Source of the DNA: a phage
Sequence record: PZ168832.1
Direction: 5' to 3' (one strand)
DNA length: 64,000 bases
Positions within the stretch are counted from its first letter, which is position 1. Every line of letters starts with the position of its first letter. The notes beneath the pieces were generated by a model. It was not told the DNA's origin, searched no databases, and saw only the letters and a list, made by a program, of their open reading frames with translations. Position numbers and translations under genes: made by a program. Of this stretch, positions 1 through 18,594 are shown piece by piece.

Positions 1-437
1 GGGATGCGGTGATCAAGAAGGCGCTCTGTGTCCCACTCGCCAACCATCGACGCTTCATCGAGTACAACAAGGTGCGGCCTTTCATCCAGCTTTGACTTTC
101 TCGAAAAGATTGGCTCATTGTCGTCATTTACGCCGCGCACGTTATAGATGAACTGGTGAAGGGTCTTAGCGCCACGACAGCCTTTTTGCTTTAATCGGCT
201 TGCAGCCTTTCCGGTCGGCGCAATATAGATAGCGCCGTACTCACCGACACAGCGGCGCACAATCTCGCGAGCAATAGAGGTTTTACCAGTCCCTGCATAG
301 CCAGCGATGAAAAACACGCGCTTCGTCGTTTTACCGTCCTGCAATCGCTTGTACCATGCAACGGCTTTCTCGATGGCGTCGATTTGTTGCGCGTTAAACT
401 GAATCACTGGCTCATCATTAAATTCTGGAATGTTCAT
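1..437 (-). CDS. SF1 DNA helicase, Dda/RecD-like (N-terminal part; C-terminus lies beyond window start)
   Basis: Minus-strand translation from ATG (complement of 435-437) gives MNIPEFNDEP...FFIAGYAGTGKTSIAREI...YIAPTGKAASRL...LVVLDEASMV: Walker A, motif Ia and Walker B in the order typical of Dda/RecD helicases. Not in ORF track because it has no stop inside the window. Confidence 0.75.
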   Translation of the reverse strand, partial: MNIPEFNDEPVIQFNAQQIDAIEKAVAWYKRLQDGKTTKRVFFIAGYAGTGKTSIAREIVRRCVGEYGAIYIAPTGKAASRLKQKGCRGAKTLHQFIYNVRGVNDDNEPIFSRKSKLDERPHLVVLDEASMVGEWDTERLLDHRI

Positions 438-763
438 TATAACTCCACTACGCTTTCAAGGTCCAGATATACTGGAATAAAATGGCAATCTTCTTTTCGT
501 TCAAACATCTCACCATCAACATGGCTGAAGAAAACAGTTGTGTTTGGTATCTTCCATCCTTTCTCGTCGCGCACTAAGTACGCCATGGATTCAACAGGGA
601 TGTACAGCGATACCGGATTCGCGGCAAAAATAAATTTGATTCTGTCTGGTTGACCCAGGAATCGCATGATTGTTAGGCTTGAATTCAATCTTGTATTAAG
701 GAAGGACTCAACGATTCCGACGTGTGTTGCACGCTCGCGTTGCTTCGTCTCTTTTTCGTTCAT
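437..763 (-). CDS. hypothetical protein (108 aa)
   Basis: ORF track; stop overlaps helicase start (TAATG), consistent with operon coupling. Confidence 0.4.
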   Translation of the reverse strand: MNEKETKQRERATHVGIVESFLNTRLNSSLTIMRFLGQPDRIKFIFAANPVSLYIPVESMAYLVRDEKGWKIPNTTVFFSHVDGEMFERKEDCHFIPVYLDLESVVEL

Positions 764-868
764 TTCAGGCGACCTTTGTTAGTGCGGAAATATTTTTTGA
801 TAGTATAATTGCAGATATAGTATAAAGCAAAGTAAATCGAAATTGTGAACTAAATGGTAAATATTGTT

Positions 869-897
869 GACTTTGTATCACTCAATATTATACTGCA
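869..897 (+). promoter_or_regulatory. sigma70-like promoter upstream of primase gene (TTGACT, about 17 bp spacer, TATACT)
   Basis: Read directly in the 764-923 intergenic region; purine-rich RBS (gaaggaaag) precedes ATG at 924. Confidence 0.35.
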
Positions 898-923
898 GGT
901 ATTGATTACCGAAGGAAAGAAAG

Positions 924-2006
924 ATGGCTAGTTTAAGAGAAGAAGCAAAAATAATTGAAGAGTTTTTAACAGAACTCCAAAGAGGCATCCCAGAAGATGA
1001 GCGCGTCATGACGGTGTTTGCTCCTGAAGCAACGGTACAGACCGACGAGCGCGGCAAGAAGATCAACAGCAGCTTCTGGCCTAAGCCTTGGAAGTTGGGC
1101 AAGCCGCTCATGCAGCACCAAAACGGCTATGCGTGCATCAGTTCAATGCGTAAGTCTCCCAACCCAAAGACGGGTGAGATGCGATACTGGCGTACAGAGT
1201 CGGCCTTTGGTCACGGTATGGCGATGATGGTCGACGACATCGGCCACGGTAAAGGGTCCAAAGGCGATTTAGATTTGGAATTCTTTTTCGAGCGACTGAA
1301 GCCGACTGTCATTGTCGAGACGTCACCGAACAACCACCAGCTTTGGTACTTCTTTAAAGAGCCGATTGACCATCTTATTCAGTTCAAAGCATTCCTTGGG
1401 TCTTTCGTAAACATGGTACTCAAGAAGGGCGGCGACAATACGATTAAAGACGTGACGCGCGTGGGCCGTGTTCCTGGGTGCATCAACAACAAGCGTGTGA
1501 CTCACGACGGCCCCTATAAATATGTCGATGAGAACGGCGACCCGTTCCGCTGCCGACTTGTCCATGCAGACTACTCCTTGCGCTACACCATCGAAGACAT
1601 CTGTCAGGCATTTGGCTTTCACGTCGTTATGTCGCAAAAGCGTGAGATTCAAATTGACGTCGATGAATACAAGTACGATGCTGTTTGGTATAAAATAGCC
1701 CAGCAGATTCTAGCGCGCAACAAAATGGGTGAAGGGTCTGATGGCGACGTCATCGAGAACATGTCAGGCAAGTGCCGCATAATCTGTCCTTGGGGTGAAG
1801 AACACACCAACGGCGACCCGTATGGCGCTTATTTTCGCGGCCCCATCCCTGGTGCTGAACATGAATTCGTTTTCGGTTGCGCTCACGACTGTCACCGGAA
1901 AGGGGAAGGCAAGAAAGGTTGGACCGCTTTTGTTGAAGCAGTAGTCATGCCTTATATTGAGAATCAACTTGATATGATAAATCGTCGCGCAGGTGGCATA
2001 AAATAG
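924..2006 (+). CDS. DNA primase-polymerase of the archaeo-eukaryotic primase (AEP) type
   Basis: 360 aa; motifs MMVDDIGHG (DxD), ETSPNNHQLWYFF (S..H) and RVGRVPGCINNK (RxPGxxN) in the order characteristic of AEP/prim-pol domains. Confidence 0.6.
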   Translation: MASLREEAKIIEEFLTELQRGIPEDERVMTVFAPEATVQTDERGKKINSSFWPKPWKLGKPLMQHQNGYACISSMRKSPNPKTGEMRYWRTESAFGHGMAMMVDDIGHGKGSKGDLDLEFFFERLKPTVIVETSPNNHQLWYFFKEPIDHLIQFKAFLGSFVNMVLKKGGDNTIKDVTRVGRVPGCINNKRVTHDGPYKYVDENGDPFRCRLVHADYSLRYTIEDICQAFGFHVVMSQKREIQIDVDEYKYDAVWYKIAQQILARNKMGEGSDGDVIENMSGKCRIICPWGEEHTNGDPYGAYFRGPIPGAEHEFVFGCAHDCHRKGEGKKGWTAFVEAVVMPYIENQLDMINRRAGGIK

Positions 2007-2213
2007 TTTGCTTTTATTTTCATAGCAACTATAATCATTTTATGAACTGAAGCAGAGGTGATTTATGCAAAGCGAAGAATTGAACATCGAGGTTGAATGT
2101 CTGTTAAAGTCGTTAGAACATAAACCAGTAGAGCTTCCGACCCTTCAAGGAGTCATGGCTCACCATCAAGCGGCTGCGGCCAAACACTACTCTGAATTTG
2201 TTAAGGAATAAAA

Positions 2214-2504
2214 ATGAACGAACCAAAAATGATGACCGTTGAAGAAGCGCAAAAGCTTCGTGTTGAAAACGAGCTTAAGCTTGTCAACCAGATTCTCCCC
2301 TTGTTTGCAGGCTACGCAGTGGAGGAAGTTGTTGGGGCAATCCTTAACGTATCCACACATGTCGCTATGAATCTTCAGGCCGAACGATTCAATACGCTGC
2401 TGACTATTAAAAACCTTACGGTCAGTGCAACGTTCACCGTTGAGCCAGTCAATTTTGACGAAGCTGCAGCCGCGATTCAACAACAGCGAGATCAAGAGGT
2501 GTAG
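2214..2504 (+). CDS. hypothetical early protein (96 aa)
   Basis: ORF track; same strand, tightly packed. Confidence 0.4.
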   Translation: MNEPKMMTVEEAQKLRVENELKLVNQILPLFAGYAVEEVVGAILNVSTHVAMNLQAERFNTLLTIKNLTVSATFTVEPVNFDEAAAAIQQQRDQEV

Positions 2505-2506
2505 CA

Positions 2507-2769
2507 TGGGTGCTTTCCGTAACGAGTTCACCTGGAACGTTACCAGAAATCTCTCGACTTGTCCTAACTGTGCAAGCGATGTTATCAAGGTGCGGCAGCA
2601 TCGCAACGCGGAGGAAGGTGCCTGGGAAGATGGCGACCTTGTAGAGTGCCAGTGCTGCTCTCATGAAGGCGTTGTGGAGCTTTACGCTGGCGAAGGTTGC
2701 CCACCAGCAGAGCGCACAGCACGCGTTGAATGGGATGCAACAGACTCCATTGGTGATCCTCAACAGTAA
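2507..2769 (+). CDS. small zinc-ribbon-like protein
   Basis: Start moved to in-frame ATG (MGAFRNE...); CPNC...CQCC cysteine pairs. Confidence 0.4.
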
Positions 2770-2888
2770 ATTTAGGTATAGATACTTATGAAAGCCGTAA
2801 AGAAATACACATTAATCATTTCCCTTGTCATCATCCTGGGGCTATTATATGTATTGGATATGGCATATTATTTGGCAGGGGTGAGTGG

Positions 2889-3179
2889 ATGAATATTGTA
2901 ATTCTTTATGGTGAAAATATCAGCGATGACGACATCGAAGTTGCCGTTGATGTTTACGGTATCGATGAGGTGAAACGTGTTGAAGAAATTAGTGGCGCAA
3001 ATCTCAATGAGATTGTCAAAGAAGCTGGCTGCCCTTCGGAAGAGATTCTGGTGGTTACTAACGATGACCTGTCTTCTATGGATCATTTGCGCCGCATCTT
3101 CACCGATTGCCAATACCTTCATGCTGTTCAATCAGTAAACAAATTGAGAAAGGCATACGCCAACCAATTTCCTTGCTGA
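2889..3179 (+). CDS. hypothetical early protein (96 aa)
   Basis: ORF track. Confidence 0.4.
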   Translation: MNIVILYGENISDDDIEVAVDVYGIDEVKRVEEISGANLNEIVKEAGCPSEEILVVTNDDLSSMDHLRRIFTDCQYLHAVQSVNKLRKAYANQFPC

Positions 3180-3315
3180 TAGTTCACCAGTTATATTGCT
3201 TTAAATTGAGTTTTACTATATTAATATACAACGCCAGATTTCTGGCGTTTATTTACCGCACCCTGAAAGGATATATCCATGCAACAATATAACAAAGCCG
3301 TATCAGGAGGATTAA

Positions 3316-4986
3316 ATGTCAATTGAACATGACAATCTTCCAGAGGATACAGGTGATGAATTTGGTGCAATCTTTGACGAAATTCAAGACGCTGGTGTTT
3401 CAGAAGAAATGCAAGCAGCAGAGCAGCAAGGCACCAGAGCTAAAATAAGCCTTCAGCACAAGGCTGTTGAGAAAGATGCAGAGCGCATGGAATGCTACGG
3501 TGAAGAAGACTTGGTTGAAAGGGCACGTTTGCTCGCCTCACTTCAGGTAATCAAGTTCCCTCACTATAAACCGACGAAAGATGATTTTGTTCTTCAGGCG
3601 GACCGGACGAGTGACATGAACCGTTATGCGGTTTTCGACGCGTTGTTTGATAAGGGAAGCGGCGTTGTTCCATTCCCTCACAAAGATACTTTTCGTGGGC
3701 GCTTAGTCGACCATCGCGGCGAAACATTCACCGACCGGACGTTGGAAGTCACAGAGATAGTTGCCGCTGTCGACGCAGCAGGCCTGTCCAACCCAAACTC
3801 ACGGCAGGTCGCTCAATCCTATAAGGAATGGGCCATGCGTTATCAGCGCGACGACCTGATGGACTTCTTCTACAAGAAGCTGCCTGAATGGGACGGTACT
3901 GCGCGCATTGAGAAATACCTTATCGAGCTATTCCGACCGTTCGATACAGAGTTAAACCGACAAATCGGTGTGTATTTTTGGCTATCGCTCTATAACCGCC
4001 TGACCAACCCTGGCTGTCAAGCGCCAATATCCATTGCGCTCATCGGCGGCCAGAACGCAGGGAAGAGTTATTTTAGTAAGCTGCTTTGCGAAGCTATTAT
4101 GAACGACCGCCACGCAACACCGATTCCGTTGAACTTGGCCGCGCAAAACTTCAACCCGTTCTTGCGAGCTATTACGGGTCGCTCAATTATCGCGAACGTT
4201 GGCGAGATGACAGGCTTTAAAAAGGCCGACATCGAAAACATGAAAGCATTCCTGACTAAGACGGAAGATGACCTGGACTTCAAATTTGAAGACACGCAGG
4301 TTAAACCACGCCAGTGGATTGCGATCATGGACGGCAACGAATACGCAGGCATGCAGCGTGACGACACGGGCAACCGTCGTGTTTACCCTATCTTTGTTGG
4401 CCAACTTGCTGACAAGGACGGGCAACCGAACTGGTCTAAAGACTTCCAAGCTGACCTTTCCACTTTGAAAGAAGATGTTTGGCAGCTTATGGCTGAGTGC
4501 GCTGCGTGGATGGAGAAGCACGGCGAAGCAGGTTACAACGCCTTTGTTGGTGAAACGTCTCGTATGCTTACTGAGTTCAGCAAGAATGAAATGGAACGCG
4601 CTCGCGGCGTTATCCGTGATGAGATGGTCGACAACGACCTTGTTGAAGTCGTCATTACTGCGCCTTATGACCGACATCACAGCGGACGCTGGCACATCAC
4701 CAGTGGTGCAATCGCTATGGGATTCAGAGCTAAGTGCGGCAAGTCGCCTTTCTCACGTACCCTTGCGCCGCACATGTCGAAACTTGGATTTGAGCCTGCA
4801 ACCTATCGCAACCAGCGTGGTTACTTTACGCCGCTGATTAAGAATGAAGCAGGGGAATACATTTCTGACTTGATGACTATCTTGGCGTATCTTATCCGCG
4901 ACGAGTCTGACCCTGAAGATATTGAATTCTTGAAGAAGGTTATTGAACGCAAACGTTCTTTAGGAAGAGATAAGGATGAATTCTGA
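3316..4986 (+). CDS. VirE-like P-loop NTPase (primase-associated helicase-like replication protein)
   Basis: 556 aa; Walker A IALIGGQNAGKSYFSKLL; resembles primase C-terminal/VirE-family NTPases; lies downstream of the AEP primase. Confidence 0.55.
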   Translation: MSIEHDNLPEDTGDEFGAIFDEIQDAGVSEEMQAAEQQGTRAKISLQHKAVEKDAERMECYGEEDLVERARLLASLQVIKFPHYKPTKDDFVLQADRTSDMNRYAVFDALFDKGSGVVPFPHKDTFRGRLVDHRGETFTDRTLEVTEIVAAVDAAGLSNPNSRQVAQSYKEWAMRYQRDDLMDFFYKKLPEWDGTARIEKYLIELFRPFDTELNRQIGVYFWLSLYNRLTNPGCQAPISIALIGGQNAGKSYFSKLLCEAIMNDRHATPIPLNLAAQNFNPFLRAITGRSIIANVGEMTGFKKADIENMKAFLTKTEDDLDFKFEDTQVKPRQWIAIMDGNEYAGMQRDDTGNRRVYPIFVGQLADKDGQPNWSKDFQADLSTLKEDVWQLMAECAAWMEKHGEAGYNAFVGETSRMLTEFSKNEMERARGVIRDEMVDNDLVEVVITAPYDRHHSGRWHITSGAIAMGFRAKCGKSPFSRTLAPHMSKLGFEPATYRNQRGYFTPLIKNEAGEYISDLMTILAYLIRDESDPEDIEFLKKVIERKRSLGRDKDEF

Positions 4987-11898: not shown

Positions 11899-12347
11899 TG
11901 GGTAAAAAGCTTATCGCCGCTGGTTGGGCCATCCCGAAGTGGGCTCATCGTGCGCACTACTTTGATGAAGGAGAAGTGCAAAGCCTTTGTGGTCGCGCAA
12001 CTTATTTCGGTGATGAGCGCGTCAGCGGCGATTACATCGACTCGCTTTTAGGCAAAGGTGATTGCAAGAAATGTCAGGATATATTAAGAGATATTCTTAC
12101 GCAAAGAGGATTGCTTGAGCTTGATGAATCGGAGGAAGTAATTGAACTTAAGCTTGAAGCGAATTACCTTATTTATACGTTCAAGAACTATTACGCAACT
12201 AATATGCGCTCAAAAATGAGCGAGGAAGTAATAGAAAAGGTGTTCACCTACAATCCGCTAAGGATGAATAAAACTAAATTGAAGAAGTTTAATATAATGT
12301 TAAGGAAAGAATTTAAAAGGCTTGGAGTGAAGAATTTTATATTTTAA
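11895..12347 (+). CDS. hypothetical protein (150 aa), last gene of early operon
   Basis: ORF track; followed by a terminator. Confidence 0.4.
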   Translation: MMGKKLIAAGWAIPKWAHRAHYFDEGEVQSLCGRATYFGDERVSGDYIDSLLGKGDCKKCQDILRDILTQRGLLELDESEEVIELKLEANYLIYTFKNYYATNMRSKMSEEVIEKVFTYNPLRMNKTKLKKFNIMLRKEFKRLGVKNFIF

Positions 12348-12363
12348 TAGTGATTAATGTTAA

Positions 12364-12388
12364 GAGGGCCGATTGGCCCTTTTTGTTT
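12364..12388 (+). terminator. rho-independent terminator ending the early operon
   Basis: agggccgattggccc stem followed by ttttt. Confidence 0.5.
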
Positions 12389-12880
12389 GCCTGTGGAATG
12401 TGAGGCTTTTGTGGTTATTTACGATTCAAGGCTGTAATTTAAGAGAGCGAAAATATTATAATAATTTATCAAGATTATTGCATATTGTGGCAATCAACGT
12501 TTATACGTATTTATGACAGTTTAATCCACTAAATAATACGGATAGAACAGTGAGGAAAATACAGCGGTGTATTTTAGTGTAAATATTGAATCAAAAATAA
12601 ATAATTATGGTGCTATTATATACGCAGATTGTTTGTAATTTATAGGATATTTTATCGTGGAGTATTGGCTAACGGTGCGTTAGCCGTGGGTCTTGGTGCT
12701 TGTGGTGTTGATGCTCAGAATTTTAATAATGTTTTAGTTTTAGTAATCGTAGTCAATGATGATACGTATAAGAAAATGAGAGTCACCCCTTCACAGGATA
12801 TTGTACCGTGGCCCTGTGGTGCGCCGCGCCTGGGATTGCTGGTATACACTGGTGCTATTTTGCCGCGAAGGCAGTCATTC

Positions 12881-13210
12881 ATACGTATCATGACGTATCA
12901 TTGGGCTATTGATTTATAAGGAAAAATACGCTGATACGGATGATACGGGTGCAAACATAATATATATAGAATTCCAGAAAATTAATTAACTCCATTTTGA
13001 ATTAATTTAAATTAATTTTTTTCTACATCCTCATACTTATACTAAACTTATATTTATACGTATCATCCGTAAGATATAAGTAAAAACAAAGACTTGCGGC
13101 AATACGGATGATACGTCATGATACGCTTCAACCAGCCATCTGCGGCTAAGTCATTGATTTGCATAACAAGCGGCGAAAGGGATGGATTTCTTTTATACGT
13201 ATCAAACAGT
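12881..13210. repeat. iteron region A: CCGTATCAT / ATGATACGG copies in alternating orientation around an AT-rich core
   Basis: acgtatcatgacgtatcat (~12883), gatacggatgatacgg (~12933), AT-rich core with gaattc and attaatttaaattaattttttt, cgtatcatccgta (~13059), atacggatgatacgtcatgatacg (~13102), tatacgtatca (~13196). Confidence 0.6.
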
Positions 13211-13339
13211 ACACCACGCACCACGGTCCGCAATCCACGCAGCATTATGATTTGTGTACATTTATAGCCATAATGAACATCAATCTGCACTTGAATATAA
13301 TGTCCATCCATTGTATAATTCACACTATTAATTTGCACT

Positions 13340-13828
13340 ATGGGATTTTGCACTATGAGTCAAGACTATGTAGCGATGCCTGAAGACTTTGAAGACCCGC
13401 GATTTGCAGAGCACAATCAGGCTTTATTCGATGAGTTCATTGACCTTGTTATTCAGGGCCATGACATGCGCGCAGCTTTTGCACTAGTATTTGGAATGGA
13501 AGTTGCAACGGATAACTACACTGGACAGCGAATCCTTTGCGCGCAACGCAACCCATACTACAAAATGCGCTTCAAAAAGCGTATGGAAGAGATGCCACTC
13601 AAGGATTTGTGGAGCGTAAAAGGTGCAATTCACAATTTGGTTAAGCTTGTGCGTGATCCAGAAGTCGCGGCGTCAGCCAAGCTTAATGCTATTCGCGAAC
13701 TGAATATCATCTACGGCATCACGATGATTGATGAAAACGGCAATAGTAAAATGGGCCGTTCCATGGACGATTTCTACAAGGATTTTGGAGAGGCAGCCAA
13801 AGAAGGCGAGCAATTCTCCCGCCACTAG
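13340..13828 (+). CDS. possible terminase small subunit (alternatively a DNA-binding regulator)
   Basis: 162 aa; FIDLVIQGHDMRAAFALVFG...AQRNPYYKMRF resembles the helix-turn-helix region of small terminase families (from memory); flanked by the 12-mer array. Confidence 0.4.
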   Translation: MGFCTMSQDYVAMPEDFEDPRFAEHNQALFDEFIDLVIQGHDMRAAFALVFGMEVATDNYTGQRILCAQRNPYYKMRFKKRMEEMPLKDLWSVKGAIHNLVKLVRDPEVAASAKLNAIRELNIIYGITMIDENGNSKMGRSMDDFYKDFGEAAKEGEQFSRH

Positions 13829-13845
13829 CCAATTTGCACTATAAA

Positions 13846-13880
13846 ACGGCCCTAGAACACATCTTCTCCACTTCTAGGGC
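13846..13880 (+). terminator. perfect 10-bp inverted repeat (ggccctagaa ... ttctagggcc), probable terminator
   Basis: Directly after the 13340..13828 stop; no strong T-run. Confidence 0.35.
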
Positions 13881-13942
13881 CGTCGGTAATACGACGGGGA
13901 AGGTTGCAACCGTAAACGCGTTAGAAAGTGTATTATTATAAG

Positions 13943-14206
13943 TCATCTTTTAGTCACCTTACGTAACAATTTACGACCTTCAGCCGTCCAATCGAACGAC
14001 TCCACCAGCAGATTCGCACTATAACCTAAGATGATGCGCCCTTTCTCGTTATCGACCCGCCAACAAGTCTCGAATAGCATTCGATTTGCACTATTAACTA
14101 TCGCCGCAACGCGCGTAGGGTAAACGCAATTTGCACTATGGTCATAAAGGGATAAGGTGCGACCACTTCCGATGGACAACGTAGCGATGAGAATGAGCGT
14201 ATTCAT
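13943..14206 (-). CDS. hypothetical protein (87 aa), island gene
   Basis: ORF track; CpG-rich codon usage; contains two 12-mer copies. Confidence 0.35.
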   Translation of the reverse strand: MNTLILIATLSIGSGRTLSLYDHSANCVYPTRVAAIVNSANRMLFETCWRVDNEKGRIILGYSANLLVESFDWTAEGRKLLRKVTKR

Positions 14207-14256
14207 AAGCCACCAATTTGCACTATGAAAAGCGACCCCGAAGGGCCGCCATTCGA

Positions 14257-14883
14257 TTAGATAATCTGGAAGGTGTAGGACTTGTTGCCGAACTCGAAGT
14301 TCAAGCGCCCAGCTTCCTTAAGCTTCATGCGGAAGCGAATATGTTTGCTATCCGGTAAGCCCAGCGCGGCGAACGCTACGCGGACCGATTTGAACTCTCC
14401 TACACCCTCGACCATAACGCCGTTACGGGTAAGACGCTTTTGCGCCACTTCCTTATTATCCCAACTTTTTGCAATGCCTTCGCTATTCGAACGGCGATGG
14501 GAAGGAGTTCCGTTTTGCACTACGCAATTTGCACTATCGTTTAAACCGCTCTTAACGAAGGCTTCATACTCTTCGTCGGTCATCGCGTCGAGTTCTTCCT
14601 GCGTCGGCTCGGCCTTTTTAACGACCGCACGCGCCTTATGCGTTTTTACATCGCTGGACACTTCCTCGCGCGGCTTCGCGTCGGGGATGGGCGATTCGTT
14701 GGACGGCTCATCGAGCGCGTTTAAGGACTCGATTAACGCGATTACGCGAGTCTCGGCGGTCCGGCGGTCCGAAAACTTCTTAATCGGTTTTGAGCCGGAA
14801 TTTGCATTATAGAATGCAACGAGGTCGGCGGTCTTAGTTGCGATAACGTCGCCGCTAGTCGAGAAGCGATTTAAGCTAACCAT
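14257..14883 (-). CDS. hypothetical protein (208 aa) with acidic central segment, island gene
   Basis: ORF track; EPTQEELDAMTDEEYEAF; unusually NCG-codon-rich. Confidence 0.45.
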   Translation of the reverse strand: MVSLNRFSTSGDVIATKTADLVAFYNANSGSKPIKKFSDRRTAETRVIALIESLNALDEPSNESPIPDAKPREEVSSDVKTHKARAVVKKAEPTQEELDAMTDEEYEAFVKSGLNDSANCVVQNGTPSHRRSNSEGIAKSWDNKEVAQKRLTRNGVMVEGVGEFKSVRVAFAALGLPDSKHIRFRMKLKEAGRLNFEFGNKSYTFQII

Positions 14884-14963
14884 AATAAACTCCTATTTGT
14901 TAGGGCGCTAGGCGCGAAAGAATTTTATTAAAGCGCCGCGCACGACGCTCTAAAAATCCTCTC

Positions 14964-15248
14964 TTACGCTTCGACGAGGGAGAAGGTTTCAAATTCTTCT
15001 TCTCCCATAACGAGTAAAATATTCCCGATTTCGACCGCTTCGAAGAAGTATCCGTTAACGTTTACTTCGAATGATTCGCGGTCCGATTCCGGTAACGCCG
15101 CGTAAAGTTTAAAAGCCTCGGCGACCGTTACCCCACCCGCTTCAATAGTTTGATCTACGTTCGCGGCGTAGACTTCGGATAAATTTTGTTTTACGCCGTA
15201 GTTCTCGACGATAGCGTTACGGATAGAAGAAACGTTAAGAATAGCCAT
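14964..15248 (-). CDS. small acidic protein, paralogue family member 1 (94 aa)
   Basis: About 16 D/E versus 4 K/R; SEVYAANVDQTIE and FEVNVNGYFFEAVEIGN align with YLSNVDATIE and YRVTINGFVYTITEIGG of 15880..16170. Confidence 0.5.
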   Translation of the reverse strand: MAILNVSSIRNAIVENYGVKQNLSEVYAANVDQTIEAGGVTVAEAFKLYAALPESDRESFEVNVNGYFFEAVEIGNILLVMGEEEFETFSLVEA

Positions 15249-15316
15249 TTTAAACTCCTAGTTGGGATAGGCGTTAACGACCTATTCGTTAACTCATCCC
15301 GTCCCGATATGAGTAC

Positions 15317-15344
15317 ATTATAATATAGTGTAGAAAAAAGTAAA
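15317..15344 (-). promoter_or_regulatory. promoter-leader cassette, copy 1 (minus strand): TTTACT, spacer, TATAAT, leader gtactcatatcgggacggg
   Basis: Reverse complement of the divergent region matches the two plus-strand cassette copies. Confidence 0.4.
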
Positions 15345-15388
15345 GCACTTTTTCGATAAAAATGCGATAAATTATTTTATCTTTTTTC

Positions 15389-15433
15389 TTTACTTCTTCG
15401 TACACTCGCGTATACTTGTTTATATCGAGACGG
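15389..15433 (+). promoter_or_regulatory. promoter-leader cassette, copy 2: TTTACT (16 bp) TATACT, leader gtttatatcgagacggg
   Basis: ctttacttcttcgtacactcgcgtatacttgtttatatcgagacggg upstream of ATG 15472. Confidence 0.45.
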
Positions 15434-15471
15434 GCGATGGCCTTTCTTCTACTAGCATCGGGAGCTTTATT

Positions 15472-15774
15472 ATGACTACTTTGATCTCTTCCATCCTTAC
15501 TTACGACGAAGACCGCTTAACCGTTCGCTCTCTTATCGCCGCCGTTAACGCGGAACTAGAATCTAGCGCCATTAAGGTCCGCGCGGTCGCCTTCATCGGC
15601 CTTTCCTTCGACGATATGAAGTACGCCGAACGTAGCGCCATCCGCTTCACGAAGACCGACGACGAAGCCGTTACCCTTATCGAGACGGTTACGCCGCGCG
15701 ACGAAGCGTTAATTATCATCGAGTATATCGATATAGAAGGTGATAAAGCTTATAAATATTTTATCGCAAAATAA
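15472..15774 (+). CDS. small acidic protein (100 aa), island gene
   Basis: ORF track; driven by cassette copy 2. Confidence 0.45.
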   Translation: MTTLISSILTYDEDRLTVRSLIAAVNAELESSAIKVRAVAFIGLSFDDMKYAERSAIRFTKTDDEAVTLIETVTPRDEALIIIEYIDIEGDKAYKYFIAK

Positions 15775-15785
15775 CGAAAAATTGC

Positions 15786-15830
15786 TTTACTTATTCGTAC
15801 ACTAAGACTATAATGTTTATATCGAGAGGG
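15786..15830 (+). promoter_or_regulatory. promoter-leader cassette, copy 3: TTTACT (17 bp) TATAAT, leader gtttatatcgagaggg
   Basis: gctttacttattcgtacactaagactataatgtttatatcgagaggg upstream of ATG 15880. Confidence 0.45.
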
Positions 15831-15879
15831 ATGAGGAAGCGAATAGGTCGCTACCCTCCCGACTAACTAGGAGAATATT

Positions 15880-16170
15880 ATGATTACTTTATCCGCTATC
15901 CGCGCCGCTCGCGTCGAAACTTCCGAAAACTCTAATGTATTTGGCGAAACCTTAGAGAGCGTTTATCTCTCTAACGTAGACGCGACTATCGAGTCTATTT
16001 ATGAACCGATCAACTTCCTCGACCTTTACAAGTATCGCGACGAGGACGTAGCATCCTACCGCGTAACGATTAACGGCTTCGTCTATACGATTACCGAAAT
16101 CGGCGGCGAATATCTCGCGATCCCGCAACTCGGCGGAGAAGTGACTTATTTTAAAATCGTAAGCCTTTAA
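15880..16170 (+). CDS. small acidic protein, paralogue family member 2 (96 aa)
   Basis: Alignable to 14964..15248 product; about 15 D/E versus 6 K/R. Confidence 0.5.
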   Translation: MITLSAIRAARVETSENSNVFGETLESVYLSNVDATIESIYEPINFLDLYKYRDEDVASYRVTINGFVYTITEIGGEYLAIPQLGGEVTYFKIVSL

Positions 16171-16181
16171 GGAGAAGAAAA

Positions 16182-16391
16182 ATGACTAATATGAATAACT
16201 CTCTTAACGCGCGCGCCCATCGTACCGCCGTCATCGATATGTTCCGCGAACTTAAGGAATTATGCGATAATATGAACGCGATGTTATCCATCGGCGGCTG
16301 GGGATACGAAGAAGAGGTTAAATACGCGGTTATGCGTCGTAAGCGCGATAACGTCCTGGGACAAATTAAACGCGCCGGATTATTCCTTTAA
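16182..16391 (+). CDS. hypothetical small protein (69 aa)
   Basis: ORF track; aggag RBS. Confidence 0.4.
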   Translation: MTNMNNSLNARAHRTAVIDMFRELKELCDNMNAMLSIGGWGYEEEVKYAVMRRKRDNVLGQIKRAGLFL

Positions 16392-16416
16392 TTATAATTA
16401 CCCACCGTTACTAATA

Positions 16417-16440
16417 GGCCGCGCTTAGTCGCGGCTTTTC
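16417..16440 (+). terminator. rho-independent terminator (ggccgcgcttagtcgcggc plus tttt)
   Basis: Read directly after 16182..16391. Confidence 0.45.
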
Positions 16441-16561
16441 TTCGTCCCTATTTCGATGCGCTTCTCCGCGAAAACTCCTTTATCCTTCCCTTCGTCGTCG
16501 CATAATCTTCTTCGAGATGCTCCTTAGTTCGCATAACAGGTATTACGTTAAATGGAGAACA

Positions 16562-16823
16562 TCGCGTAAGTCCTTGTTTTATATAGACACCTATATCGGA
16601 CCGTTAGGGCGGGTCGCGTAAGTCGTTGTTTTATAAAGGCGCAAAACTTTCCCTTCGTTCCGAACTAAAACGAGGAATATGCCGACCCTTCGTCCGAAAA
16701 TAGTACGCATGCGAAATTACATGCATCTAGAATAATCCCCACCGATATTATCCTACACGCAATCATTCGCTTTCGAATCATTATGCTTCATATTGTTATG
16801 CGTCAAATCATTCGCTTTCGAAT
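16562..16823. repeat. direct repeats in an ORF-poor region: tcgcgtaagtc(c/g)ttgttttata x2 and atcattcgctttcgaat x2
   Basis: Copies at about 16562/16614 and 16762/16807; the second contains palindrome attcg-cttt-cgaat. Confidence 0.4.
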
Positions 16824-17095
16824 TGTAACGCTGGAAACTGTAACGGCTATTGATTATTGCGTTCGTGTGGTTTTTATGGCATGGGTCTTTTGGTGCGTTT
16901 TGGTACTTGATGGAATTTGCGGTACACTAATCAAAATACGACACATTTGGTCCACTAACTTTTCAAAGAAAAAGTCCCAGACAGTACCGTACTATTTTGT
17001 ACCCACAGTAAATTTGCAGTACACTCCTGCGCGGCAGGCAAAATAAAGGGCCGCCACAGCGACCCACGATTCACGGTTAAATCAACAAGCACCCA

Positions 17096-17542
17096 CTATT
17101 CACTCTTATGGGCATCACCAAAGCCATCCGCAATCTGGCTGATCAGCGATTCAATGGACACAGTTTTACCAATTGATCGAGCGGTAATAGCAAGCATATT
17201 ATCAATCAAACCATGATTGGATGCATATGATCCAGGTTTTGAATCATCTTCAGAACAACCAAAAAGCTGGTCGCGCAGACTTTCAAGAGAACGCTCAATA
17301 TTTTCCAACTTCTCTTCTAAATCGGATTGGCGACGTAAAACCCACGTCAAGTCACGGTTGCCAACTTCCAATCCATCAGAATAGCAAGGTGGAGCGTCAA
17401 TTTTGATGCTGGAACCAAAAGCAATGCCGCTGCCTTTAGTATATGTGTGACTCATAGAATCATTTTTATTTGACATATCGTTACCTTCAATATTTGGGTG
17501 ATTAACAATAAGTATAATAAAGCCGCATAGCGCGGCATTCAA
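17096..17542 (-). CDS. hypothetical protein (start possibly at internal MSNKND)
   Basis: ORF track. Confidence 0.4.
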   Translation of the reverse strand: MNAALCGFIILIVNHPNIEGNDMSNKNDSMSHTYTKGSGIAFGSSIKIDAPPCYSDGLEVGNRDLTWVLRRQSDLEEKLENIERSLESLRDQLFGCSEDDSKPGSYASNHGLIDNMLAITARSIGKTVSIESLISQIADGFGDAHKSE

Positions 17543-18525: not shown

Positions 18526-18594
18526 TTGTTAACGTATAATGAGTATAACTTAATAGCCCATAAAGTAAAGGCGCTTTTCAGCGCCTTGAGTGAA

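Follow-up and report, generated by a model that had tools for sequence, protein, structure and literature searches.

A CA/TG exclusion zone in the direct terminal repeat of Wifcevirus phages overlaps a candidate immediate-early module

Sequence record PZ168832.1 was analyzed over a stretch of 64,000 nucleotides (nt), hereafter the window, which derives from a Wifcevirus, a myovirus of Escherichia coli. An earlier note on this DNA had pointed to a block at 13850-16750 as a CpG-enriched island with small acidic proteins behind three promoters. The primary signal of this block is a strand-symmetric depletion of the dinucleotides CA and TG, and the CpG excess is a by-product, because the CA/TG positions are filled by CG and TA. 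The CA/TG exclusion is actively maintained and is located in the direct terminal repeat (DTR) of the phage. The explanation that is tentatively favored here, by analogy with phage T5, is that the block would be an immediate-early module in the part of the DTR distal to a TerS-like gene and that the exclusion would serve the avoidance of restriction motifs.

In windows of 1 kb, the lowest observed-to-expected ratio (o/e) of CA/TG was 0.29, compared to 1.183±0.069 in the background (z = -12.9). When the k-mers of the island were compared with those of the rest of the window, 175 CA/TG were observed where 438 were expected, 13 CAG/CTG instead of 99.6, and 10 CTAG instead of 1.1. CG and TA were each increased by about 1.8-fold and the remaining dinucleotides were unchanged. 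The CpG enrichment, which had rested on hand counts, could be reproduced: in 1-kb windows the CpG o/e was 1.7-2.2 across 14001-16500 compared to 1.105±0.12 elsewhere (z = +9.3), and the density was 9.6-12.0 per 100 nt compared to ~3.3-8.5 (mostly 5-7). The preference for NCG codons proposed in addition held in part, as these codons occur 6-10 times per 100 codons in the island compared to 4.3 in the TerS-like gene, but most of the extra CpG is located at codon junctions (NNC followed by GNN; 19-27 per 100 codons in the island compared to 6). Two parts of the depleted region could be distinguished:

14650..16680, no strand: core CA/TG-free zone, with a CA/TG o/e of 0.16-0.55, a CpG o/e of ~2 and a TpA o/e of 1.0-1.5 (150-nt resolution)
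13750..14649, no strand: shoulder with partial CA/TG depletion, o/e 0.6-0.9 with one bin at 1.1, overlapping the right part of an array of AATTTGCACTAT repeats

The right edge of the zone is sharp and lies ~200 bp short of the DTR end, and the inner edge is graded. On the sense strands CA and TG are equally depleted, and the depletion is also found in intergenic DNA and in the DNA behind the terminator. Since it is present in non-coding DNA and is strand-symmetric, it acts on double-stranded DNA, and an RNA-level cause was rejected on the same grounds. The share of pyrimidine-purine steps is conserved (0.24 compared to 0.25), therefore the replacements are transitions. A single longer motif was rejected as the target because every CA/TG context is depleted. 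The least depleted trinucleotide class is ATG/CAT (ratio 0.59), which also makes up most of the residual CA/TG steps, and the most depleted one in Wifcevirus is CAG/CTG (ratio 0.06). CA/TG is kept only where the protein sequence or signals need it, for example in ATG codons.

A local mutational bias, that is a context-specific hypermutation of CA/TG to CG or TA, is an improbable source of this pattern. It would agree with the losses of CA/TG being matched almost exactly by the gains of CG and TA, as transitions alone give, with the graded inner edge, and with resident genes of any ancestry taking on the composition. However, it would require both C to T and A to G changes in one dinucleotide, over ~2 kb, and in only one half of a repeat whose two halves are copied together, and the predominance of ATG/CAT among the residual steps fits retention where function needs CA/TG. 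A preference for transitions is equally expected from selection under coding constraint. We know of no bacterial or phage process of such a dual-transition kind. Fungal repeat-induced point mutation, which according to one study leaves duplicated DNA with depleted CpA/TpG and enriched TpA (PMC2621366), resembles the zone in pattern only: it is eukaryotic, lowers the G+C content and destroys genes, whereas here CG is increased, the G+C content is maintained with intact genes, and the change is confined to one half of the repeat.

To separate the exclusion from codon usage, synonymous codons were shuffled within each gene, so that the protein and the gene's own codon usage were preserved, and the CA/TG steps at codon junctions were counted. 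The genes concerned are:

14257..14883, minus strand: C208, 208 amino acids, 98-100% conserved within Wifcevirus; junction CA/TG 20 observed, shuffle mean 34.8
14964..15248, minus strand: D94, 94 amino acids, acidic, isoelectric point (pI) 4.05 and net charge -12, paralogue of F96 in a slot that is variable between genomes; 3 observed, shuffle mean 14.7
15472..15774, plus strand: E100, an acidic orphan of 100 amino acids, pI 4.58; 7 observed, shuffle mean 20.8
15880..16170, plus strand: F96, 96 amino acids, acidic, pI 4.23, fast-evolving paralogue of D94; 5 observed, shuffle mean 14.4
16182..16391, plus strand: G69, 69 amino acids, basic, phrog_10377 ('transcriptional regulator'); 2 observed, shuffle mean 11.1

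In each of these five genes the junction CA/TG count was below the shuffles at P<0.0005; in C208 the depletion is graded along the gene. The effect was absent from the TerS-like gene and from B87, a neighboring open reading frame (ORF), in the same shuffles. Codon usage was therefore rejected as the cause of the composition. The amino acid content of D94, E100 and F96 is bent as well: His, Cys and Trp are lacking, and Gln occurs only 0-2 times per protein.

Homologs outside the island were then compared. The C208 homologs E217 gp79 and Spe5P4 CDS0106 contain 11.6 and 13.7 CA/TG per 100 nt and the G69 homolog KLPN1_06 of a Webervirus 16.4, compared to 7.0 and 6.2 in the island copies of C208 and G69. 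In these outside homologs, the junction CA/TG counts were at or above the shuffle mean. Since homologs outside the island are normal, the composition belongs to the position and not to the ancestry of the genes. Between the two subgroups of Wifcevirus, F96 orthologs have 91 differences in 291 nt (31%) and share 61.5% amino acid identity; they carry 9 and 6 CA/TG, only two of them at common positions. Simulated neutral divergence of F96 gave 28.7±4.2 CA/TG, with a minimum of 14 in 5000 runs. The earlier note had left a choice between foreign origin and distinct selection. The maintenance through the divergence of F96, together with the junction shuffles, supports the latter, and the normal CA/TG content of C208 and G69 homologs in other phages speaks against the former.

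A horizontally acquired cassette that keeps the composition of its donor is thus very improbable as an explanation. The composition is sharply unlike that of the rest of the genome, G69 is common to Weberviruses and the slot of D94 is variable between genomes, all of which such a cassette would explain. However, C208 is a vertically inherited core gene of the clade with normal homologs elsewhere, the Webervirus homolog of G69 is normal in composition, the signature survives 31% divergence, it is found at one and the same place in the DTR of three genera whose small genes mostly differ, and no donor-like signature was found in ~110 unrelated viral loci. G69 itself looks like a recent arrival. 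Its homologs in Klebsiella Weberviruses share 44-48% identity and are annotated 'transcriptional regulator', and it is present in 9 phage-database records and absent from Mansfield, Bas99 and others. Its junction CA/TG steps have already been cleared (2 compared to 11.1 expected), and 11 within-codon CA/TG remain.

The region was matched at 90-99% identity by 29 phage records, which belong to E. coli and Shigella myoviruses classified as Wifcevirus or to close unclassified relatives. The records of Mansfield, WFC and SP13 all begin at what is position 12994 of the window. SP13 contains an exact repeat of 3899 bp at both ends, with 100% identity in the DTR, and its last base maps to window position 16890. 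The PhageTerm DTR of Mansfield, 1-3673, is consistent with the DTR of the window; in the WFC record the boundary is located 80 bp beyond position 16890, and the original paper on WFC gives a terminal repeat of ~3.7 kb (PMC6563267). The flagged block comprises everything to the right of the TerS-like gene inside the DTR, which is organized as follows:

12994..16890, no strand: DTR, 3897 bp, with 12994 as left physical end and 16890 as right DTR boundary
13340..13828, plus strand: TerS-like gene, phrog_4783, annotated in Mansfield as terminase small subunit (HHpred), of normal composition
13332..14812, plus strand: array of 11 same-strand copies of AATTTGCACTAT, 9 of them with the exact 9-mer core, from the TerS-like start codon into C208
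16761..16778 and 16806..16823, plus strand: AATCATTCGCTTTCGAAT, present twice within the final ~130 bp of the DTR, from reading of the sequence

The TerS-like gene is within the DTR and outside the CA/TG-free zone. Outside the array, the 64 kb contain no exact copy of AATTTGCACTAT, where 0.5 would be expected. Across all Wifcevirus loci the copies of the array are syntenic. The array is a candidate TerS/packaging recognition array or injection-stop signal. In the final ~200 bp of the DTR, repeats of the AATCATTCG type are present in Wifcevirus and Kylevirus alike and are probably candidate terminase end-recognition sequences. TG-rich DNA and conserved repeats start right at the edge of the zone, and the TG-rich DNA crosses the DTR boundary. 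On the other side, the stretch 12000-13340, which spans the left end at 12994, has a G+C content of 0.27-0.43, lacks convincing ORFs and contains AT-rich repeats such as TTAATTTAAATTAATT; it is presumably the region of the terminase cut site.

The zone is conserved in two further genera. Pantoea phage Kyle (Kylevirus) has an exact DTR of 3603 bp (1-3603) with a zone at ~1500-3400 and a minimum o/e of 0.20, and in the Serratia phages MyoSmar and Spe5P4 (Myosmarvirus) the zone is located at 200-1800 with a minimum o/e of 0.12-0.14. The MyoSmar record, with a PhageTerm DTR of 1-3559, is in the opposite orientation, and its DTR contains an ortholog of the TerS-like gene (36% identity, E = 3e-30) on the minus strand. 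In all three genera the zone is on the TerS-distal side of the DTR and ends ~200 bp from the boundary on this side. Its contents are also parallel: a gene of the C208 family, promoters of the TTTACT/TATAAT type, a terminator and two to four small acidic proteins per zone with a pI of 4.05-4.65. The small zone proteins are mostly non-alignable between the genera, with the exception of the protein in the D94 slot of WFC and Kyle_6 (32% identity, E = 1e-4). At the place matching the AATTTGCACTAT array, MyoSmar and Spe5P4 have a different triple repeat, ACAAAGCATGCTTATTTTTT. The most depleted trinucleotide differs as well, being CAG/CTG in Wifcevirus, CAA/TTG in Kyle and TCA/TGA in MyoSmar. Avoidance of MazF sites is disfavored, as ACA is not specially depleted in Kyle.

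No zone was found in Pbunavirus E217 over 64 of its 66 kb (minimum o/e 0.69), nor in 12 kb around one C208-like gene each of Salmonella phage PCSE1 and Aeromonas phage Gekk3-15. It was also absent from ~110 unrelated viral loci of IMG/VR, which were mostly chance matches of a scan for the promoter pattern and served as a negative control of ~1 Mb; only loci derived from Wifcevirus and Kyle were positive. One viral contig, IMGVR_UViG_3300020049_003693, has a low CA/TG content over the whole locus (median o/e 0.57) without CpG excess, which is a different phenomenon from the local zone.

The zone might instead be a requirement in cis of terminal-repeat biology, for example a single-stranded DTR free of primase starts for annealing, strand invasion or concatemer formation, or a segment without premature terminase cuts. 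In favor of this, the zone occurs in the DTR of three genera at ~0.2-2 kb from one boundary, whatever genes are present, is strand-symmetric, covers non-coding DNA, and adjoins the TG-rich DNA and conserved repeats that start at its edge; it is absent from E217, which was compared by composition. CAG/CTG is the most depleted class in Wifcevirus (ratio 0.06), and CTG is the start site of E. coli DnaG. However, a primase motif would be one trinucleotide and the three genera have no common most-depleted trinucleotide. In addition, the TerS-proximal half of the same repeat is normal in composition, the zone is centered on the putative early promoters, and T7 and T5 use DTRs without a zone. A cis role is considered unlikely.

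The promoters on which the zone is centered, and their leaders and terminators, are:

15389..15416, plus strand: promoter P1, TTTACT-16-TATACT, facing right
15786..15814, plus strand: promoter P2, TTTACT-17-TATAAT, facing right
15317..15344, minus strand: promoter P3, TTTACT-16-TATAAT, facing left
15828..15860, plus strand: predicted stem-loop of the P2 leader, loop AAUAGG
15264..15305, minus strand: predicted stem-loop of the P3 leader, loop AAUAGG
14231..14248, minus strand: terminator-like hairpin after C208, from reading of the sequence; WFC annotates a terminator at the homologous site
16416..16437, plus strand: intrinsic terminator that ends the rightward transcription unit

All three promoter-leader cassettes that the earlier note had described, two rightward and one leftward, are present, and each promoter is followed by ATATCG(A/G)GA(C/G)GG. 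The predicted promoters are close to consensus (10/12, 10/12 and 9/12 matches). The cassettes align over ~50 nt and are near-identical in 8/8 Wifcevirus genomes despite diverged or swapped genes behind them; conserved promoter cassettes are also found in Kyle. P3 is predicted to drive D94 followed by C208, and the rightward P1/P2 units E100, followed by F96 and G69. The 5' stem-loops of the P2 and P3 leaders have predicted energies of -15.2 and -17.3 kcal/mol (z = -1.6 and -2.5). Across the paralogous and Myosmarvirus leaders the hairpin has 8 pairs, three of them with compensatory changes, and the loop AUAGG is invariant. Across 12500-17500, no Rfam covariance model matched at E≤1; as a guess, the hairpin might be a 5' stabilizer or a protein-binding site. 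Further promoter-like sites of the form TTTACT-N-TATA(C/T)T were observed outside the DTR at 18569, 51170 and 62080, all on the minus strand and with genes of normal composition behind them; the site at 18569 shares the upstream GAAAAGCGCC motif. As the same hexamer occurs in promoters elsewhere in the genome, the -35 element TTTACT was rejected as a consequence of the CA/TG ban.

The coincidence of the zone with the putative early transcription units plus ~200 bp would also fit an insulation of expression, in which the removal of TG/CA leaves only the intended starts of transcription and translation in a fast module. TG is part of the -35 TTG, of the extended -10 TG and of all NTG start codons, with CA on the other strand, ATG/CAT is the least depleted class (ratio 0.59), and a very short infection cycle is reported for Wifcevirus-type phages (PMC7048862; PMC11990801). 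However, the TTTACT-type promoters at 18569, 51170 and 62080 drive genes of normal composition, nothing comparable is seen in the early regions of T7 and T5, which are strongly expressed, and CAG/CTG is far more depleted than TTG, GTG and ATG. Such an insulation is doubtful, and like the mutational bias it fits less well than restriction-motif avoidance in an immediate-early module.

The proteins of the block were examined for indications of their function. As had been proposed, D94 and F96 are acidic paralogs (34% identity over 82 amino acids, E = 2e-7; pI 4.05 and 4.23), and the observation of small acidic proteins behind strong promoters is correct, with the theme recurring in the two other genera. 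In homolog searches against 5.8 billion proteins, D94/F96 and E100 were confined to Wifcevirus. The slot of D94 is occupied by D94 in the window phage, Mansfield and SP13, by an unrelated acidic protein of 104 amino acids in WFC and Bas98, and is empty in Eco4M-7 and RCIP0319, where P3 lies directly ahead of C208. The family of C208 is unannotated, comprises 829 clusters at 50% identity, and has two conserved domains and the invariant residues W141, R150, F171, I182, F184-R185 and K189. C208 has orthologs in Pseudomonas Pbunaviruses (36-37% identity), Serratia Myosmarvirus and other phages. Of the two members of this family in Myosmarviruses, one is located in the CA/TG-free zone, and the other, which is longer, beside the large terminase gene in DNA of normal composition.

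When eight island proteins were compared with Pfam, PHROGs, NCBIfam and PADLOC, informative family matches were limited to phrog_10377 for G69 and PHROGs of unknown function for the TerS-like protein and C208. Profiles of C208 built from 3 and 50 sequences matched nothing in PDB or Pfam, and one of 50 family members gave a weak NUMOD-like match (E = 0.0035). AlphaFold models of F96 (a score of 60 in the predicted local distance difference test, from an alignment of 12 sequences) and C208 (37, from a near-identical alignment) were both unusable, and the best E-value of a Foldseek search of the low-confidence F96 model against PDB was 0.32. Homologs of the T5 proteins A1, A2 and Dmp were not found in Pfam, PHROG and NCBIfam searches. 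The suggestion that the acidic proteins are DNA mimics received no direct support, since there was no family or fold match to Ocr or ArdA-type mimics and the acidity of D94, E100 and F96 is moderate (15-18% Asp+Glu, net charge -6 to -12); DNA mimicry is unproven, being neither supported nor excluded by the present evidence. Direct support was likewise absent for an anti-CRISPR (Acr) function, for which the general libraries gave no similarity and no dedicated Acr library was searched. As to linkage with an aca-type regulator, the small 'regulator'-annotated G69 adjoins F96, but is absent from many Wifceviruses.

Two further features are located between the TerS-like gene and C208:

13846..13879, no strand: candidate bidirectional terminator hairpin with a 10-bp stem GGCCCTAGAA...TTCTAGGGCC after the TerS-like gene, from reading of the sequence; WFC annotates a terminator at the homologous site
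13943..14206, minus strand: ORF B87, 87 amino acids, basic, hypothetical in related records, with three copies of the AATTTGCACTAT array and a Chi site

B87 lacks CA/TG avoidance and is doubtful as a real gene. Its Chi site (GCTGGTGG), at 14002, is the single TerS-proximal one in the window phage. In the TerS-proximal half of the DTR, Kyle has 9 Chi sites in 1.7 kb (record ~262-1979) and the Serratia Myosmarviruses have 4 within 0.5 kb (loci 2132-2582; 2107-2447). The site at 14002 has the same orientation as those of Kyle and Myosmarvirus, and the orientation of all TerS-proximal Chi sites is one that would stop RecBCD coming in from the TerS side.

According to the favored explanation, restriction-motif avoidance in an immediate-early module, the three near-identical sigma-70-type promoters would drive the module, and, in analogy to the first-step transfer of T5, the TerS-distal DTR would be exposed in the cell and expressed ahead of all other DNA of the phage. 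The products of the module would shield the remaining genome against restriction and perhaps also against further defenses. The segment itself would be unprotected and hence selected to lose recognition motifs. Banning one frequent class of dinucleotides would be a generic way of removing motifs, by which many short asymmetric motifs disappear, and would be reachable by transitions, many of them synonymous. The AATTTGCACTAT array at the graded inner edge might be the pause point of first-step DNA entry or a TerS binding site. Early timing, order of entry, a protective function and motif avoidance as the purpose of the ban are what we infer for the module.

The restriction phenotypes of Wifceviruses can be compared with this proposal. 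In published tests, Wifceviruses are highly sensitive to EcoP1_I only and resist most tested restriction systems without known genome protection, and the authors state that the pattern is not explicable from site counts (PMC11990801); for Bas99 the S2 table lists 5, 3, 38, 8, 92 and 89 sites (PMC11990801). The DTR of the window contains 5 EcoP1I sites (AGACC), in both orientations, and no EcoRI, EcoRV, EcoKI or EcoAI-type (EcoCFT_I) sites, of which the whole window has 18, 5, 6 and 3. The phenotyped phage Bas98 has the same DTR site map as the window, and among the tested systems whose motif is known, only EcoP1_I has sites in the DTR. For EcoCFT_II, which has a 5-nt motif, CACAG (89 in the window, in agreement with the published count, and 0 in the DTR) is a guess from site counts only. 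The zone lacks 98 of the 512 asymmetric 5-mer classes, compared to 41.8±7.4 in background windows of equal length, and contains 1920 distinct 6-mers compared to 2296±49. In SP13, the phage most closely related to that of the window, the DTR includes a site each for EcoRV and EcoKI (2620, 2780); if the model is true, SP13 would be sensitive to the EcoRV and EcoKI systems, unlike Bas98-101. The anti-restriction role put forward in the earlier note is plausible and circumstantial, based on the location in the terminal repeat, the resistance phenotypes and the site pattern of the DTR; a match to a known anti-restriction protein did not emerge.

Several observations weigh against the favored explanation. 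The agreement of the DTR site maps with the phenotypes of Bas98-101 is a correlation over six systems, one of them with a guessed motif, and EcoKI, EcoRV and EcoAI-type sites are so rare that their absence from 3.9 kb is expected by chance. Palindromes are not reduced in the zone (16 distinct 6-bp palindromes compared to 18.2±3.3, and 4-bp palindromes are more numerous). Since palindromic 4- and 6-mers are not poorer, the zone gives no generic protection against type II systems, and a generic avoidance of palindromic type II sites was rejected as the cause. The first-step-transfer repeat of T5 (minimum CA/TG o/e 0.80) and T7 (0.91) are without a zone; this form is therefore not the usual one for the avoidance of motifs in a leading segment, and a general property of first-injected DNA was rejected for the same reason. 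A role in replication or packaging would likewise agree with the constant distance between zone and DTR boundary, and the orientation of the Chi sites hints that the end other than that on the TerS side may be the exposed one. Finally, no island protein has a known fold or family in Pfam, PHROG, NCBIfam, PADLOC or PDB, and none matches a known anti-restriction protein.

The module is akin to known early or host-takeover regions in terminal repeats. As in T7, several strong host-type promoters lie near the genome end with a small acidic protein directly after them (T7 annotation), and T7 makes an anti-restriction protein before exposing the remainder of its genome. In contrast to T7, there is no sequence or fold match to Ocr (gene 0.3), the proteins are much less acidic, two of the three promoters face the genome end, and the early region of T7 is normal in composition. 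SPO1-like and Staphylococcus K-like phages have clusters of small orphan proteins behind strong early promoters in long terminal repeats; their hosts and proteins differ from those of the window phage, and to our knowledge no compositional exclusion zone has been reported for them. The likeness to T5/BF23 (Tequintavirus) consists of early genes, putative ones in the window phage, inside a long DTR, host-type promoters and a repeat-rich inner side (T5 annotation). According to one study, T5-like phages withstand type I, II and III systems as long as no sites fall within the terminal repeats, so that restriction works only via sites in these repeats (PMC10644984); here, EcoP1_I sites are present in the DTR. 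Unlike T5, the window phage showed no protein homology to A1, A2 or Dmp, its repeat is 3.9 kb instead of 10 kb, its virion is that of a myovirus, and the ban has no counterpart in T5, the T5 repeat having normal dinucleotides (lowest CA/TG o/e 0.8). Known restriction-site avoidance (Rusinov et al., 2018, as cited in PMC8594841) is similar in that selection removes recognition motifs from phage DNA, but it concerns particular sites of 4-8 bp and is usually genome-wide, whereas here one dinucleotide class is affected in a 2-kb segment and palindromic sites are not reduced.

Literature searches found no described CA/TG-poor phage region, and DNA modification, early genes and entry are not covered by data in the papers on vB_Eco4M-7 and WFC. 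Apparently, none of the three, the CA/TG exclusion zone, the covarying hairpin of the leaders and the protein families, has been described before. With an o/e of ~0.25, 13 standard deviations from the genome background, the zone is a local dinucleotide ban imposed on any resident gene and conserved across phages of Escherichia, Serratia and Pantoea. Possibly, although this is put forward with reserve, this subterminal exclusion zone of ~2 kb is a stealth segment, which by its smaller k-mer space would escape host nucleases until its own products protect the genome; alternatively, some activity at the DNA level that reads CA/TG steps may lie behind the ban. For genome scanning the zone would provide a simple signature of first-expressed modules, and for phage engineering it would indicate which 2 kb to keep free of host recognition sites. 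The small orphan proteins and the widespread C208 family are candidates for a new broad anti-restriction function. If true, the stealth reading would explain the restriction resistance of Wifceviruses without known DNA protection together with the exception of EcoP1_I, a published puzzle that becomes testable via the sites in the DTR.

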